This document shows positions 2,694 to 56,603 of a DNA stretch of 64,000 nt, in pieces. The translations under genes were made by a program, and so were the position numbers. Each line of letters starts with the position of its first letter. Within the stretch, counting starts at the first letter, position 1. Origin of the DNA: Coraliomargarita sp. (GTDB lineage: Bacteria; Verrucomicrobiota; Verrucomicrobiia; Opitutales; Coraliomargaritaceae); contig OZ244160.1 in assembly GCA_965216325.1 (NCBI GenBank), positions 2,016,001-2,080,000 on the forward strand. The letters are read 5' to 3'. The notes beneath the pieces are model-generated. The model searched no databases. It had not been told where the DNA came from and saw only the letters and a program-made list of their open reading frames with translations.

Positions 2694-3498
2694 ACGGTAT
2701 AAATTGGATCATCTGTTTGATTTTCAGCTCCAATTGCTCTGGGTTGCTGGGGATGAACCATTGTTCCTCGCCACGCATCTGGAGTCTGCCGCGATAGATC
2801 TGGCCCCAAGTGCCGAGCGTGATGTTGCCCGCGTGGTCGCAGCGTAGCACGGTGACGGCATGGTCTTGGTTTTCTGGGACGATGAATTTGCCGTTACCCT
2901 TCGGTTTGACCACCAGATAGCCAGCCCGGAATTGCTTGTTAATTTCAAGGAAGTCCGTGGTTTTTAGGGGTGGCTTCACAAAGTCGGTATGAATGCGCAG
3001 CTCTTGCTTCGAACCGGCTTGGACCAGCTGATCGAGTGCCATGCCTATCTCGGCACTGTTGGTGCCTTGGGTGAATTCACGGCTTTCTTGGGCGATGCCG
3101 AGGATGTAGGAGTCGATCGCTCTGAATAGCTCCTGCTTATAGGCACGCGGGTCCGCATTGCGGTTGTTGGCTTCAACGAGGCCGTATTTCTCATACCAAA
3201 TGAGAATGTTCAATAAGGCCGTCGGACCGCAGCCGCTCTCGGGAAGGGGGTAGTCCAGCTGATTCTCAGAGCGCAGTCCCGAGCGATTGAGTCCGCTATT
3301 GGTCCGTTCCATGCCTGATATCAGTTCATGGTAATAGCGATTTTCGCCGTCGATCTGACGTTTGACCACGACTTTGAAGTCCTCGATGCCTTGTGCACTG
3401 CAACAGGCTGAAAGCGCGCAGAGTAAGATGTAAAGACTGGTTCGGGCAGTGCGTGACATTCGCTGCACGCTAGCCGTCAGCGCGGCTGAGTAAAGCAT
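2662..3498 (-). CDS. exported hypothetical protein, possible papain/C39-like peptidase fold
   Basis: Signal-like N-terminus (start may be at MSRT), SGCGPTA Cys motif and DHAVTV His motif. Confidence 0.6.
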
Positions 3499-3641
3499 GG
3501 AGCACGCGTCCGCTCAGTCGACCGTGGTGTTAGCAATGCTTATTGATTGTATTAAATACAAAACTTTCCCTAATAAGTCTAACTTTTCGGTTTGCGAGAT
3601 TGGATAAGAATATCTTATCTCTAATGCCTAGTCTTATTACT

Positions 3642-52926: not shown

Positions 52927-54132
52927 GTGCACTGCCTCATTCTAGGCAAGCTCTGGCCTGAGCCCTCTTCGACGGCGGCTGGGCGCCGCACTTTGGATAT
53001 TATCCGCACGCTGCGTGTTGCTGGCTGGGATGTTAGTTTTGCATCCGCAGCAACAGCGACGGAGCATACTATTGATCTCGGTCGATTAGGGGTCGAGGTG
53101 CGCGCAGTTGAGGTGAATGACTCCGTATTTGATTCATGGATACAAGAGCTGAATCCTGATGTTGTCGTGTTTGATCGATTTATGGTCGAGGAGCAATTCG
53201 GATGGCGTGTTGAGAAAGCCTGTCCTCAAACCTTGCGCGTCCTTGATACCAGCGATCTGCATTGTTTGCGCCATGCGCGCCAGCAGCAAGTGCTCAAGGG
53301 GGAAGCCTTTGATCTCTATAACGAGGTGGCTTTGCGCGAAATTGCATCGATTCATCGTTGTGATCTGTCATTGATGATTTCGGAGTATGAGGTGGATATA
53401 CTGCATCGCGAGTTTGCGATCCCGCAGGGGCAAGTGGCCTATTGGCCGTTTAGTGTAGAATTGTCCGATGCCCCGCAGCCTGCTTTTGATGCACGCCAAC
53501 ACTTTGTGATGATTGGTAGCTTCATGCATCCGCCGAATTTGGATGCAGCTCGTTGGTGTAAGCAGGCAATCTGGCCCTTAATTCGTGAGCAGCTTCCGGG
53601 GGCTGAGCTGCATTGTTATGGATCTTATGGCGAAAAGTATGCAGGCGAGCTGCATGCGCCAAAGGACGGTTTTTATTTTAAAGGCCGTGCTAAGGATGCG
53701 TTGGAAACCTTAGGGCAGTATCGCGTGAACCTTGCCCCCTTACGATTTGGTGCGGGGCTCAAGGGGAAGGTCTTCGATGGCTTCGAGGCTGGCACGCCGA
53801 CGGTGACAACGCAAGTCGGTGCGGAGGGAATTGCTCGTGAGGATGTTTGGGGATGTGTGCTGTCTGATGAGCCTGAGCAATTCTCTGCTGCAGCGGTAAG
53901 GCTCTATCGGGAGGTCGATTTTTGGCAGCAGGTTCAACAAAACGGGCGTTCGATTCTTAAGGAGCGCTTTGGCGCTGCTACGTGGCTGACGGAATTGCCT
54001 GCAATTCTAGAGGTTGGATTGTCCAGCCGTGCGGTGAATCGTCGACAGCATTTTGTGGGTCGAATGTTACGCCACCATCATCATCGCAGCACTGAGTTTA
54101 TGAGTCGTTGGATTGAGGCAAAGAATCGTTGA
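52927..54132 (+). CDS. glycosyltransferase (GT4-like)
   Basis: WPEPSSTAAG, FDRFMVEEQFGW, APLRFGAGLKGK. Confidence 0.88.
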   Translation: MHCLILGKLWPEPSSTAAGRRTLDIIRTLRVAGWDVSFASAATATEHTIDLGRLGVEVRAVEVNDSVFDSWIQELNPDVVVFDRFMVEEQFGWRVEKACPQTLRVLDTSDLHCLRHARQQQVLKGEAFDLYNEVALREIASIHRCDLSLMISEYEVDILHREFAIPQGQVAYWPFSVELSDAPQPAFDARQHFVMIGSFMHPPNLDAARWCKQAIWPLIREQLPGAELHCYGSYGEKYAGELHAPKDGFYFKGRAKDALETLGQYRVNLAPLRFGAGLKGKVFDGFEAGTPTVTTQVGAEGIAREDVWGCVLSDEPEQFSAAAVRLYREVDFWQQVQQNGRSILKERFGAATWLTELPAILEVGLSSRAVNRRQHFVGRMLRHHHHRSTEFMSRWIEAKNR

Positions 54133-54134
54133 TT

Positions 54135-54237
54135 GTAGGGGCGTTGCTTGCGACGCCCGCCGCGTTGGAGCAGCTTTACTGTCTGCGGGCTTCGCCATTC
54201 GGCCATAAGCTCATGGTCGAAGGCAAGCAAAGCCCCT
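54135..54237. repeat. family C REPIN with a nested 27-bp hairpin, interrupted at its terminal CT|AC by IS110
   Basis: GTAGGGGCGTTGCTTGCGACGCCCGC...GCAAGCAAAGCCCCT|; the missing AC resumes at 55680-55681. Confidence 0.87.
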
Positions 54238-54359
54238 GCTATGTTCGTTTCTGTCAAGAGTGTAGAAGCGTGTGAGTGTTTTTACATAAGATAAGTGGTT
54301 TGTTTTGATTGCAATCGTCTTTGAGCGTCCACCGCGCATGGCCTCGGAGTTTCGATGAT

Positions 54360-54515
54360 CCGGGATAACCTGCTATCCGTTTTTCTGAGTGTTTCTCAGA
54401 AGAGCACACTATGACCTATCCATTGGGTCATTCAAAAGCTTGGTGGCGAAGTGGCCTATTCTACAAAATCGTTGTGTTGGCAACAGGGGCTTGGTCAGAC
54501 TCACTCCGCACAAAG
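54360..54515 (-). ncRNA. putative bridge/seek RNA core (target- and donor-binding loops); RNA ends unknown
   Basis: Two stem-internal loop-stem modules whose loops match the REP target (AAGCCCCU, GUAG) and the circle junction (UCAUAG, AUAGC). Confidence 0.72.
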
Positions 54516-54573
54516 GAAAACTGCAAAAGAACGTTAAAATCAGAGGGTGAAGGCCTTTAGCGTTGGTTCGGAC

Positions 54574-55662
54574 TTATGGGTTTTGTCTGCTTATCAGTCC
54601 GAAGTCTTCGAGACTGCATTGGCCAGTGCGTATGCGCCACCAGTCCACGGCGAACTGCCGGGCGATGGCCACGGCAATTTTCTTGCGGGTCGCCTTACTG
54701 GTGGTCTCGTCGCTGAGCTTGGCCTGCCATTTACGCACCCCACTGTAGCCGGGATTCCACCGGATCAATAACCAGGCGCACTCTTGTAGCATATGCCGCA
54801 GGCGGGGACTGCCGTGTTTGTTGATCGAGCCCTGGAAACGCCGATTTGCACTAGTGTCTTCGCTTGGGCACAGTCCGGTAAAGGAACTGACCGCCTTGCG
54901 GTTGTTGAATCGCTTCCAGTTGCAGACCTCACGTTCGATCTGTTCATAGAGGACCACCCCCATGCCTTTAGGCAGCACCCGTTCCGGCTCGAGCGCTTCG
55001 ATACGTTCTTCGATGTTGCTGATTAGCTCGCTAAAGTGCAGGCAGTTTAACCGCAGTGGCTCCAGCAGGCTGATCAAAAAATCGTCGAGCTGTTCGAGTA
55101 GCTGCATCCATTTGCGCGGCTTCCACCAGCCGCTGGGTAAGGGTTGATCGTAATACAGTCCCAGACTCTTACCACGCTTGGCCGCACGGCCACGTTCTTT
55201 GACGAAGCTTTCACGCTGCCGGGTTAGGCTGCGGTGACGCTCTTCTTGCTCGCTGGGCACACGCACGACACTGAAGCTGCGGTCATTGCCCCGCAGATAG
55301 CCGTCCAGACTCAAGACCATTTGCAACGCATCACGCGCGTCGGTCTTTACCTTCTTACCATGAGTGTCCCAGTTGATCGGGCGGATTACGTGGTTGTTCA
55401 CGCCCATCGCCTTGAGCTTGCGGTGCAGGCTGTAACCAAAAGGACCGGCCTCGTAGCAACTTTGCAACTGCTCGCACTGAGTGCTCAGCTGCTTAATCCA
55501 TCGAAGGAAGATATCAGGCTTCATGCGCTTCGCGCGTGAAGGGGCGCTGCTATCGATCTTCATGACCACCACGTAGGTGCTCGCATGCACGTCAATGCCA
55601 AGCTTGATTACTGTGCCCAGTGCGTTCTTAGTTGTCCGTGTAGATGATGTGGGGTTTTGCAT
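54574..55662 (-). CDS. IS110-family DEDD recombinase/transposase
   Basis: LGIDVH, CYEAGPFG, KTDARDA (DEDD), FTGLCPSEDTSA (Tnp-domain Ser), INKHGSPRLR. Confidence 0.95.
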   Translation of the reverse strand: MQNPTSSTRTTKNALGTVIKLGIDVHASTYVVVMKIDSSAPSRAKRMKPDIFLRWIKQLSTQCEQLQSCYEAGPFGYSLHRKLKAMGVNNHVIRPINWDTHGKKVKTDARDALQMVLSLDGYLRGNDRSFSVVRVPSEQEERHRSLTRQRESFVKERGRAAKRGKSLGLYYDQPLPSGWWKPRKWMQLLEQLDDFLISLLEPLRLNCLHFSELISNIEERIEALEPERVLPKGMGVVLYEQIEREVCNWKRFNNRKAVSSFTGLCPSEDTSANRRFQGSINKHGSPRLRHMLQECAWLLIRWNPGYSGVRKWQAKLSDETTSKATRKKIAVAIARQFAVDWWRIRTGQCSLEDFGLISRQNP

Positions 55663-55721
55663 AAGTTTATCATCATAGCACTTCCGTGCTCCTGATAAAC
55701 GCCCATGTCATCTTCGTTTTA

Positions 55722-56603
55722 TTAGCCTAGCACTTGCTGCAGGCGTTCGATGAGCTCGGCGCGGATGGGGCGGGCGGCTTCGGAGAGTTTGCGTTGGCGA
55801 CGCTCGTAGGTGGCGCGGCCTGTGGCGGTTTCGACGGGTATGGCGTCGTAGCCGAGCGAGCTGCAGTCGTAAGCGCTCGCTTGCATGTCGAGTTCGCGTG
55901 CGCGAATGGCCAATTCGAAACTCTTCCACAATAGTTCCGAACCGACCCAAGGCATGCATTGGGCGGCCAGTTTGTAGAGGTCCATGTTGGTGTGTAGGCA
56001 GCCGCACTGTTCGTTGTCGAGGCGGTCGTCTTTGCCGGGCTGGATGCGATTGAAGCGCTTGGCGGATGGTGTAAAGAAGCGGAAGGCGTCGAAGTGGCTG
56101 CAGTTGATCGGGCGGCTTTCGACGAAGGCATTCACTTCTGCTTGGCTGAGGCGCAGGGGCAGCTTTTCGCCGTGACGGATTTCACCGTCGTTATCGCCGC
56201 GATACACCATGGCCCACTCATGCATGCCGAAACATCCGAACTGTGGCGGGCGGGCGTGCACGGCCTTAGAGAGCTTGAGGGCGAAACTCAAACGACGCCG
56301 GTTGCCTGCATCCAGCTTGGATGGATCCAAGACGAGTCGGCCATCCTGGGCCGTATAGAACTTCTCGTTAAACGCGTGTGGCTGGTTACCGAGCTCCAGT
56401 GCGACCCCCAGCCCGGGATGCCATGCCTCCAGTTGGGCGGGTGCGTTGCGGTAGTAAATGAAGAGAAAGTCGTAGATCGGGTGCATCTTGCCCGAGGCGC
56501 GCCGCTTGCGGTAGGGCGCCGTCCATGCTTCTGCTCGTGCCCGATGGGTGTTTGCCCTGTGGCGCCATGCTTCGAGACTTTGGTGTATGTGTGTCGTTGG
56601 CAT
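55722..56603 (-). CDS. conserved hypothetical protein (family often labelled 3-methyladenine DNA glycosylase; function not supported here)
   Basis: HPIYDFLF.YY, CFGMHEWAMVY, CSHFDAFRFF, GCLHTNMDLYK, RELDMQAS.YD. Confidence 0.75.
   Translation of the reverse strand: MPTTHIHQSLEAWRHRANTHRARAEAWTAPYRKRRASGKMHPIYDFLFIYYRNAPAQLEAWHPGLGVALELGNQPHAFNEKFYTAQDGRLVLDPSKLDAGNRRRLSFALKLSKAVHARPPQFGCFGMHEWAMVYRGDNDGEIRHGEKLPLRLSQAEVNAFVESRPINCSHFDAFRFFTPSAKRFNRIQPGKDDRLDNEQCGCLHTNMDLYKLAAQCMPWVGSELLWKSFELAIRARELDMQASAYDCSSLGYDAIPVETATGRATYERRQRKLSEAARPIRAELIERLQQVLG

Follow-up and report, generated by a model that had tools for sequence, protein, structure and literature searches.

A probable REP-programmed bridge RNA at the downstream end of an IS1111-type insertion sequence in Coraliomargarita

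The DNA analysed here, referred to as the window, is a stretch of 64,000 nt from Coraliomargarita sp. (GCA_965216325.1, contig OZ244160.1, positions 2,016,001 to 2,080,000, forward strand). On its minus strand it carries an insertion sequence (IS) of 1474 bp with a single transposase gene, a short non-coding end of 49 nt upstream of that gene (55711-55663) and a longer one of 336 nt downstream of it (54573-54238). The ends were placed by aligning the nine copies of the element found in the same genome together with their flanks, which gives in gene sense the layout AG, ATGACATGG ... GAACATAGC, AG. The features of the locus, in window positions, are as follows.

54238..55711, minus strand: IS body, 1474 bp, from the alignment of the nine copies and their flanks
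at 55711, minus strand: left end of the IS, beginning ATGACATGG, from the same alignment
at 54238, minus strand: right end of the IS, finishing in GAACATAGC, from the same alignment
55712..55713, minus strand: left-junction core AG (CT on the plus strand), AG preceding the left end in 9/9 copies
54236..54237, minus strand: right-junction core AG, from the copy alignment and from vacant-site contigs, whose loose ends diverge exactly at 54237
54184..54235, no strand assigned: REP element, long-loop variant, which forms the long side of the target, from the copy alignment and a genome-wide REP list
55689..55706, minus strand: left subterminal inverted repeat ATGGGCGTTTATCAGGAG, which begins past a 5-nt extension
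54241..54260, minus strand: right subterminal inverted repeat CTCTTGACAGAAACGAACAT, which stops before the 3-nt extension AGC
54574..55662, minus strand: transposase/recombinase gene, 362 aa, from the open reading frame and Pfam matches to PF01548 and PF02371
54357..54513, minus strand: predicted bridge/seek RNA with a target and a donor loop, the span of a covariance model of 154 positions

Beyond the left end, a 293-aa open reading frame without a Pfam match (55722-56603, minus strand) stops 8 nt short of the left core.

A DNA search of the 3.06-Mb genome recovered nine full, near-identical copies of the element, which differ from one another at a single position within it. The copy number agrees with independent Logan contigs from four DNA runs, in which the IS is collapsed to one contig (54229..55713) at about nine times the depth of its flanks (3515.7 against 371.9 and 402.1 in X2; 277.6 against 28.3 and 35.1 in X3). 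Neither a circle junction nor an excised site was seen in the contigs of these four runs, a form of data that drops rare forms. One of the four runs has a contig with a joint inside the REP region, from 54160 to 54208. Among the listed public runs that contain this stretch none is recorded as RNA, which has no bearing on expression.

All nine copies are inserted at the foot of a REP hairpin (...AAAGCCC-CT-AC). The right flank starts GGGCTT... in 9/9 copies and core plus right flank read AGGGGCTT in 9/9, while the left flank ends in GT before the AG core in eight copies and in GA in the window copy. Vacant sites throughout the genome read GCGGGCTTCGCAAGCAAAGCCC-CT-AC. The presence of AG at both junctions, taken with these vacant CCC-CT-AC sites, shows insertion at the CT/AG core without target duplication. 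An earlier note on this DNA, made from the sequence alone, had named AAAGCCCCTAC as the target; this holds as the consensus, being found for 8/9 copies and at 34 vacant AAGCCCCTAC sites, nearly all of them at the foot of this REP hairpin, although the window copy itself deviates by one mismatch. Two forms of this REP family occur across the genome, the shorter hairpin being GCGGGCTTCGCAAGCAAAGCCC and the longer one carrying ...GAGCTCATGGTCGAAGGCAAGCAAAGCCC; the target end is common to both, and the long form is occupied by the window copy and one other. A second REP, which reads GCGGGCGTCGCAAGCAACGCCCCTAC on the minus strand, lies at 54135-54160 in the opposite orientation to the occupied one and some 25-75 bp away from it, in the manner of a REP pair; its foot, ACGCCCCTAC, is vacant and has one mismatch to the long target guide described below.

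The protein matches both Pfam domains of the IS110 family, PF01548 (DEDD_Tnp_IS110) narrowly with 29.2 bits against a cut-off of 29 (E 9.4e-07) and PF02371 (Transposase_20) with 52.9 bits against a cut-off of 21.3 (E 4.9e-14). Candidate residues of the DEDD motif are D24, E71, D108 and D111 and the candidate serine is S271 in GLCPSEDTSA, all five being invariant in 28 homologues. The catalytic residues of IS621 are D11/E60/D102/D105/S241 (PMC11208158). S271 aligns to the serine within ...YESG... of the IS621 chain; at the N-terminus the two proteins align weakly. A single-sequence search of solved structures gave nothing at E 0.01 and a profile search gave weak matches to chains of IS621 (E 0.015) and ISCro4 (E 0.0016). 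The relatives of the protein come from Verrucomicrobiota, the closest named ones being Coraliomargarita proteins annotated as 'IS110 family transposase' at 70-72% identity, and no named IS found in the plasmid collection reaches 32% identity.

The two ends of the element share an imperfect subterminal inverted repeat, set in by 5 nt on the left and by 3 nt on the right. Within the window IS alone its score is weak, being reached by 162/2000 shuffles; the offset is the same in the six relatives examined. CTTGAC is kept in the right ends of relatives. The right repeat contains TTGACA (54257-54252), which by eye would be set 17 nt ahead of TGACAT (55710-55705) in a circle junction and could be the -35 box of a junction promoter. 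We give this idea low weight because the candidate -10 box matches at just 3/6 positions in this element (some relatives have TAACAT there); a sigma-70 promoter scan of 54150-55800 returned 0 sites. At the upstream end a hairpin stands just before the start codon (55670-55695, minus strand), with one in the same place in L022, L025 and L030 and compensatory changes among relatives (AGCAC/GTGCT, AGCGT/ACGCT, GCGAC/GTCGC, GTGA/TCAC). It may control translation or bind the protein.

We gathered 79 loci from public genomes, in the nearest of which the downstream non-coding end could be aligned by nhmmer, and built a covariance model (R1) of 154 positions from nine sequences. R1 gave 63 matches in the 79 relatives' loci, all but one on the transposase strand and downstream of the gene. 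The remaining match is a second, oppositely oriented one in L069, where the two hits (2939-3081, plus; 3398-3540, minus) lie about 320 bp apart as two related elements tail to tail. Matches are full-length in 62/63 cases and the other, in L028, is cut off by the end of the contig. Two departures in architecture were seen in the same set. In L024 (2776-2950) a short ACCACCTTCAACTCAATCCACT-like unit stands three times between donor loop and right end and once in its siblings, and the elements of the L065 family (L065-L072) are about 1.93 kb long with about 250 nt from the left end to the conserved transposase start, against 49 nt here.

The predicted RNA comprises two internal loops, each with its guides.

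54446..54509, minus strand: target-binding loop module, recovered in the minimum free energy (MFE) fold
54485..54492, minus strand: long target guide AAGCCCCU, which pairs with the IS-sense strand of core and right flank AGGGGCTT, 8/8 in 9/9 copies
54461..54464, minus strand: short target guide GUAG, identical to left flank and core, GTAG in 8/9 copies and GAAG in the window copy
54363..54421, minus strand: donor-binding loop module with outer stem GGAUAG (54421-54416) / UUAUCC (54368-54363)
54411..54415, minus strand: 5' donor guide GUCAU, complementary to the left-end extension ATGAC (55711-55707)
54370..54376, minus strand: 3' donor guide AUAGCAG, identical to the right end ATAGC and the core AG
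54381, minus strand: position private to the window copy, A here and C in the other eight copies and all aligned relatives

The target loop is closed by an outer stem, GCGGAGUG (54509-54502) with CACUUCGC (54453-54446), extended by GUCU (54500-54497) with AGGC (54457-54454), and contains an inner stem, GUUG (54484-54481) with CAAC (54474-54471), so that the inner hairpin spans 54484-54471. Outer stem, inner stem and both guides lie where the earlier note had drawn them by eye and the MFE fold recovers the loop. Among 43 distinct RNAs the helices of this loop are paired in 86-99% of cells with compensatory changes, 25 of 28 pairs having changes on both sides, and in the helix test the observed values of pairing and compensation were reached by 0/500 shuffles. 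Folding the 191-nt stretch, a check the earlier note had asked for, gave a divided answer: the target loop is in the MFE structure but the donor outer stem is absent, UUAUCC there pairing with a nearer GGAUA, and GGAUAG/UUAUCC and the inner stems form when the donor segment is folded alone. The stability of folding is not above that of shuffles (z of -0.24 for the 191 nt, -0.95 and -1.96 for its two halves) and an Rfam scan of 53800-56200 with E up to 10 found no matching family.

The two target guides span 8 nt and 4 nt and overlap at CT. A pattern of AAGCCCCU followed by GUAG is found twice in the window, in the RNA itself and at the real junction, against 0.04 in shuffles. In relatives the reverse complement of the long guide stands directly after ...CATAGC and changes with the guide, with the following combinations.

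AAGCCCCU with flank AGGGGCTT: window and L022
UGACCCCU with flank AGGGGTCA: many loci
UGACUCCU with flank AGGAGTCA: L033, a clear switch
CUCCUCCU with flank AGGAGGAG: L062, a clear switch
CGACCCCU with flank AGGGGTCG: L063
UGGCCCCU with flank AGGGGCCA: L064, a clear switch
ACACCGCU with flank AGCGGTGT: L099, a clear switch

Guide and core plus right flank match at 8/8 positions in 30 of 55 loci, at 7/8 in five and at fewer in 20; some of the poorer loci reflect register shifts of the model or one-base homopolymer differences and others are true mismatches. Taking one representative for each of 17 guide classes, 95 of 136 positions match compared with 63.2 when permuted, a value reached in 0/20000 permutations. 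The short guide equals the last two flank nucleotides and the core exactly in 40/49 loci, a count made without L094 because its left end was mis-detected. Counted by distinct RNA, 44/48 non-core nucleotides match (0/20000 permutations). In some loci (L035, L074, L088) the match extends to 6-8 nt, and L032 and L035 differ in step, with AUAG/ATAG in the one and AAAG/AAAG in the other for guide and flank. Covariation between guides and flanks, a check that the earlier note had proposed for homologues, was found for both target guides, and the target half of a bridge/seek RNA is strongly supported by this pattern of sequence change. In one metagenome-assembled genome, L049 (1250-1500) and the flanks of L043 and L039 contain tandem runs of AAAGGGTCA / AAAGGGGTCA, which are the elements' own target motif.

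Directly after GUAG stands a handshake-like A (54460). Across relatives the nucleotide following the short guide equals the first nucleotide of the IS in 49/49 loci (A in 32 and T in 17, from 21 and three distinct RNAs respectively). Such handshake guides have been described (PMC11208158), and the agreement links the target loop to the donor as handshake pairing would predict.

For the donor half, the ends of the nine copies place the true junction at ...CATAGC-AG-ATGACAT... The earlier note had taken TCATAGCGC as the donor junction and UCAUAGUGU as the 5' donor guide. The alignment of the nine copies rejects that junction, which does not exist, and the guide is wrong in that UCAUAGUGU and AUAGC had both been matched to the same right-end segment. 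Its stems GGAUAG/UUAUCC and UUCUGAG/CUCAGAA are present as drawn, as is AUAGC (54376-54372), for which the true match is longer, AUAGCAG at 54376-54370. The inner stems are GUG (54407-54405) with CAC (54381-54379) and UUCUGAG (54401-54395) with CUCAGAA (54389-54383). The nucleotide directly after AUAGCAG, G at 54369, equals the first nucleotide of the flank. Searching upstream regions by 6-mers for the 5' donor guide yielded little, and left ends were then defined from multi-copy families.

With these assignments the donor half is supported in its corrected form, less firmly than the target half, and the evidence has to be weighed against the alternative that the RNA is a guide to the target only. 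According to this explanation a short seekRNA picks the REP and the protein reads its own ends mainly via the subterminal inverted repeats, so that the donor loop would be a scaffold for protein binding and its matches to the ends conserved sequence, not functional pairing. Several observations lean that way. Conservation of the donor outer stem is poor, with pairing in 62.8% of cells in the 43 distinct RNAs, which also agrees with a published remark (PMC11208160, section 12) placing the donor-binding nucleotides of many IS1111 elements within a multi-loop. At 5 nt the 5' donor guide is short, and the two nucleotides after it are AG (54410-54409) in the window's clade where a core match would need CU; among 51 loci, those of relatives and the window together, it matches the left end at 5/5 positions in 10, at 4/5 in 32 and at 3/5 or fewer in nine (thus at most 4/5 in 41/51), and the core match CU follows it in 10/51. 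The 3' donor guide matches the right end at 7/7 in 54/59 loci with uncompensated end mismatches in 4/59, and as guide and end are both almost invariant there is little covariation to judge, what there is resting on one or two lineages. A pattern of GUCAU followed by AUAGCAG occurs once in the window with 0.15 expected and at least once in 14/100 window shuffles. The subterminal repeats keep their fixed offset in 7/7 elements examined, and for IS1111-type elements the shorter RNA of 82-96 nt with the target matches is described as the predominant transposase-bound species (PMC11187229).

Against this, L099 has a compensatory change with an AUAGGAG guide and an ATAGGAG right end, and by eye L098 likewise pairs AUAGGAG with an ATAGG right end. 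Changes in the left end are partly tracked by the 5' guide (ATGAC/GUCAU, TTGAC/GUCAA, ATAAC/GAUAU, TTAAC/GAUAA), the inner GUG/CAC stem is paired in 100% of the 43 distinct RNAs with compensatory changes and two alternative sets of pairs, and the nucleotide after the short target guide ties the target loop to the donor in every locus counted. On balance we consider a target-only guide unlikely. Very unlikely is that there is no functional RNA, the region being an untranslated 3' tail with terminal recombination sites that matches REP by chance or as a captured REP fragment: the unremarkable folding energy, the empty Rfam result and the empty promoter scan would suit this, but both target guides covary with their flanks, the stems carry compensatory changes, chance would supply the guide pair only 0.04 times per window, a REP picked up by the element would not be expected to vary together with the targets used elsewhere, and relatives with different flanks do not carry the same loop sequence.

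The window copy differs from its eight siblings in two respects. Its A at 54381 disrupts a G-C pair in the donor loop, within the conserved stem GUG/CAC, and makes the isolated fold 1.4 kcal/mol weaker, the collapsed contigs carrying the majority base at this position. It also sits in the target ...CCCCT-TC, not CT-AC, which is one mismatch to GUAG; AAGCCCCTTC is found six times in the genome. With this substitution and the target mismatch the window copy departs from the consensus and may be slightly defective.

The reading we prefer, and hold with high confidence, is that the locus encodes an RNA-guided DEDD recombinase of the IS110 family and IS1111 type, active or recently active, with a bispecific bridge RNA programmed for REP. 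The inference of the earlier note, an IS110-family element with a bispecific, REP-programmed guide RNA in its downstream end as in the IS1111 group, is supported by the two IS110 Pfam domains, REP-specific insertion in 9/9 copies and the covarying target guides. The 3' non-coding end would form a bridge RNA (long seekRNA) of about 154 nt, probably cut from the transposase transcript. In its first internal loop AAGCCCCU would pair with one strand of the REP foot and core and GUAG with the other strand of the core and two further nucleotides, so that both guides together would specify AAGCCC-CT-AC. The second loop would recognise the 5-nt extension of the left end with GUCAU and the extension of the right end, together with the core, with AUAGCAG, and these guides would hold the circularised element. 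Recombination at the common CT/AG core would then yield insertion without target duplication, and the nucleotide after each 3' guide would match the other partner, as in handshake pairing. Whereas the element boundaries, copy number, target, conserved fold and covariation of guides with flanks are shown by the sequences, we infer transcription, processing, protein binding, circle formation and the order of strand exchange from what holds in the family.

Elements of the IS1111 type have a long non-coding region downstream, subterminal inverted repeats of 7-17 bp with terminal extensions, a match to the top strand 5' of that to the bottom strand and transposases of 330-350 aa, and the long RNA of ISEc11 has 154 nt (PMC11187229). 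The element described here resembles the seekRNA elements of this group (ISEc11, ISPa11, ISKpn4; PMC11187229) in its downstream non-coding end and its subterminal repeats with short extensions. It is like the group also in having the guide that pairs with the top strand 5' of the one for the bottom strand, in the length of about 154 nt for its long RNA, and in that GLCPSEDTSA fits the GL-P----S motif, and like ISPa11 it targets a REP (PMC11187229). Unlike the group as described there, its protein has 362 aa rather than 330-350 aa and its motif ends SA, not SG/TG (PMC11187229). It differs from the named IS1111 members further in its Verrucomicrobiota host and in the identity of less than 32% to named IS of the plasmid collection. 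The assignment to the IS1111 type fits by downstream RNA, subterminal repeats and guide order, a likeness judged against published descriptions of the group.

Parallels with IS621, whose target guides are of 9 nt and 4 nt including the CT core (PMC11208160), are two internal loops, a long 5' target guide with a CU core and the 4-nt 3' guide GUAG (PMC11208160, PMC11208158), a REP target ending ...CC-CT-AC (ATCAGGC-CT-AC in IS621 and AAAGCCC-CT-AC here; PMC11208160), and the CT core, handshake-like nucleotides after the 3' guides and an active site of DEDD and serine (PMC11208158). In contrast to IS621 the RNA here lies downstream and not upstream, so that the gene is inverted relative to RNA and target, and the 5' donor guide has 5 nt (at most 7 in relatives) without core pairing where that of IS621 has 7 nt and core (PMC11208160). 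The subterminal repeats are also longer here and similarity to the IS621 protein is detectable by profile alone (E 0.015). As with ISPpu9 and ISPpu10 of Pseudomonas putida the target adjoins a GC-rich stem-loop (PMC12288879; bioRxiv 10.64898/2026.03.19.712850), but those belong to the IS110 group with the RNA upstream of the gene and ISPpu9 has, unlike the element here, the extra small RNAs Asr9 and Ssr9 (PMC12288879). For ISPpu10 the REP hairpin has been reported as a structural layer of recognition (bioRxiv 10.64898/2026.03.19.712850).

Sequence comparison identifies the RNA as a genuine homologue of bridge/seek RNAs, carried by an IS1111-type element naturally programmed for REP. RNAs of this class became known in 2024 and are predicted in 93% of catalogued IS1111 elements (PMC11208160), which makes the locus an expected further example, and targeting of REP is already known from IS621 (PMC11208160), ISPa11 (PMC11187229) and ISPpu9/ISPpu10 (PMC12288879; bioRxiv 10.64898/2026.03.19.712850). 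Our literature search found no paper joining bridge RNA with Verrucomicrobi* and none for this clade; the supplementary tables of the two 2024 papers may list related elements. It is conceivable, although we would put the chance low, that the relatives form an undescribed IS1111-like subfamily spread across Verrucomicrobiota, with enzymes of about 360 aa at less than 32% identity to named IS, a near-constant donor loop and ends and at least 17 target-guide variants, and that in the subclade of the window the 5' donor guide gave up core pairing. If so, the left end would be held by just 5 nt of RNA, the handshake nucleotide and contacts between the protein and the subterminal repeat. Donor recognition would then follow a variant mechanism, and strand exchange might differ in order or direction too.

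Bridge/seek RNAs, described recently, allow DNA insertion to be programmed with a compact enzyme. Because target guides vary among the 43 distinct RNAs while the donor loop stays fixed, the family is in effect one scaffold reprogrammed naturally many times, from which the positions that tolerate change can be learned. The absence of a core match in the 5' donor guide offers a concrete point for testing. The locus leaves the current picture of the mechanism unchanged. For the genome itself the element explains nine identical repeats, with the REP family as their landing site.
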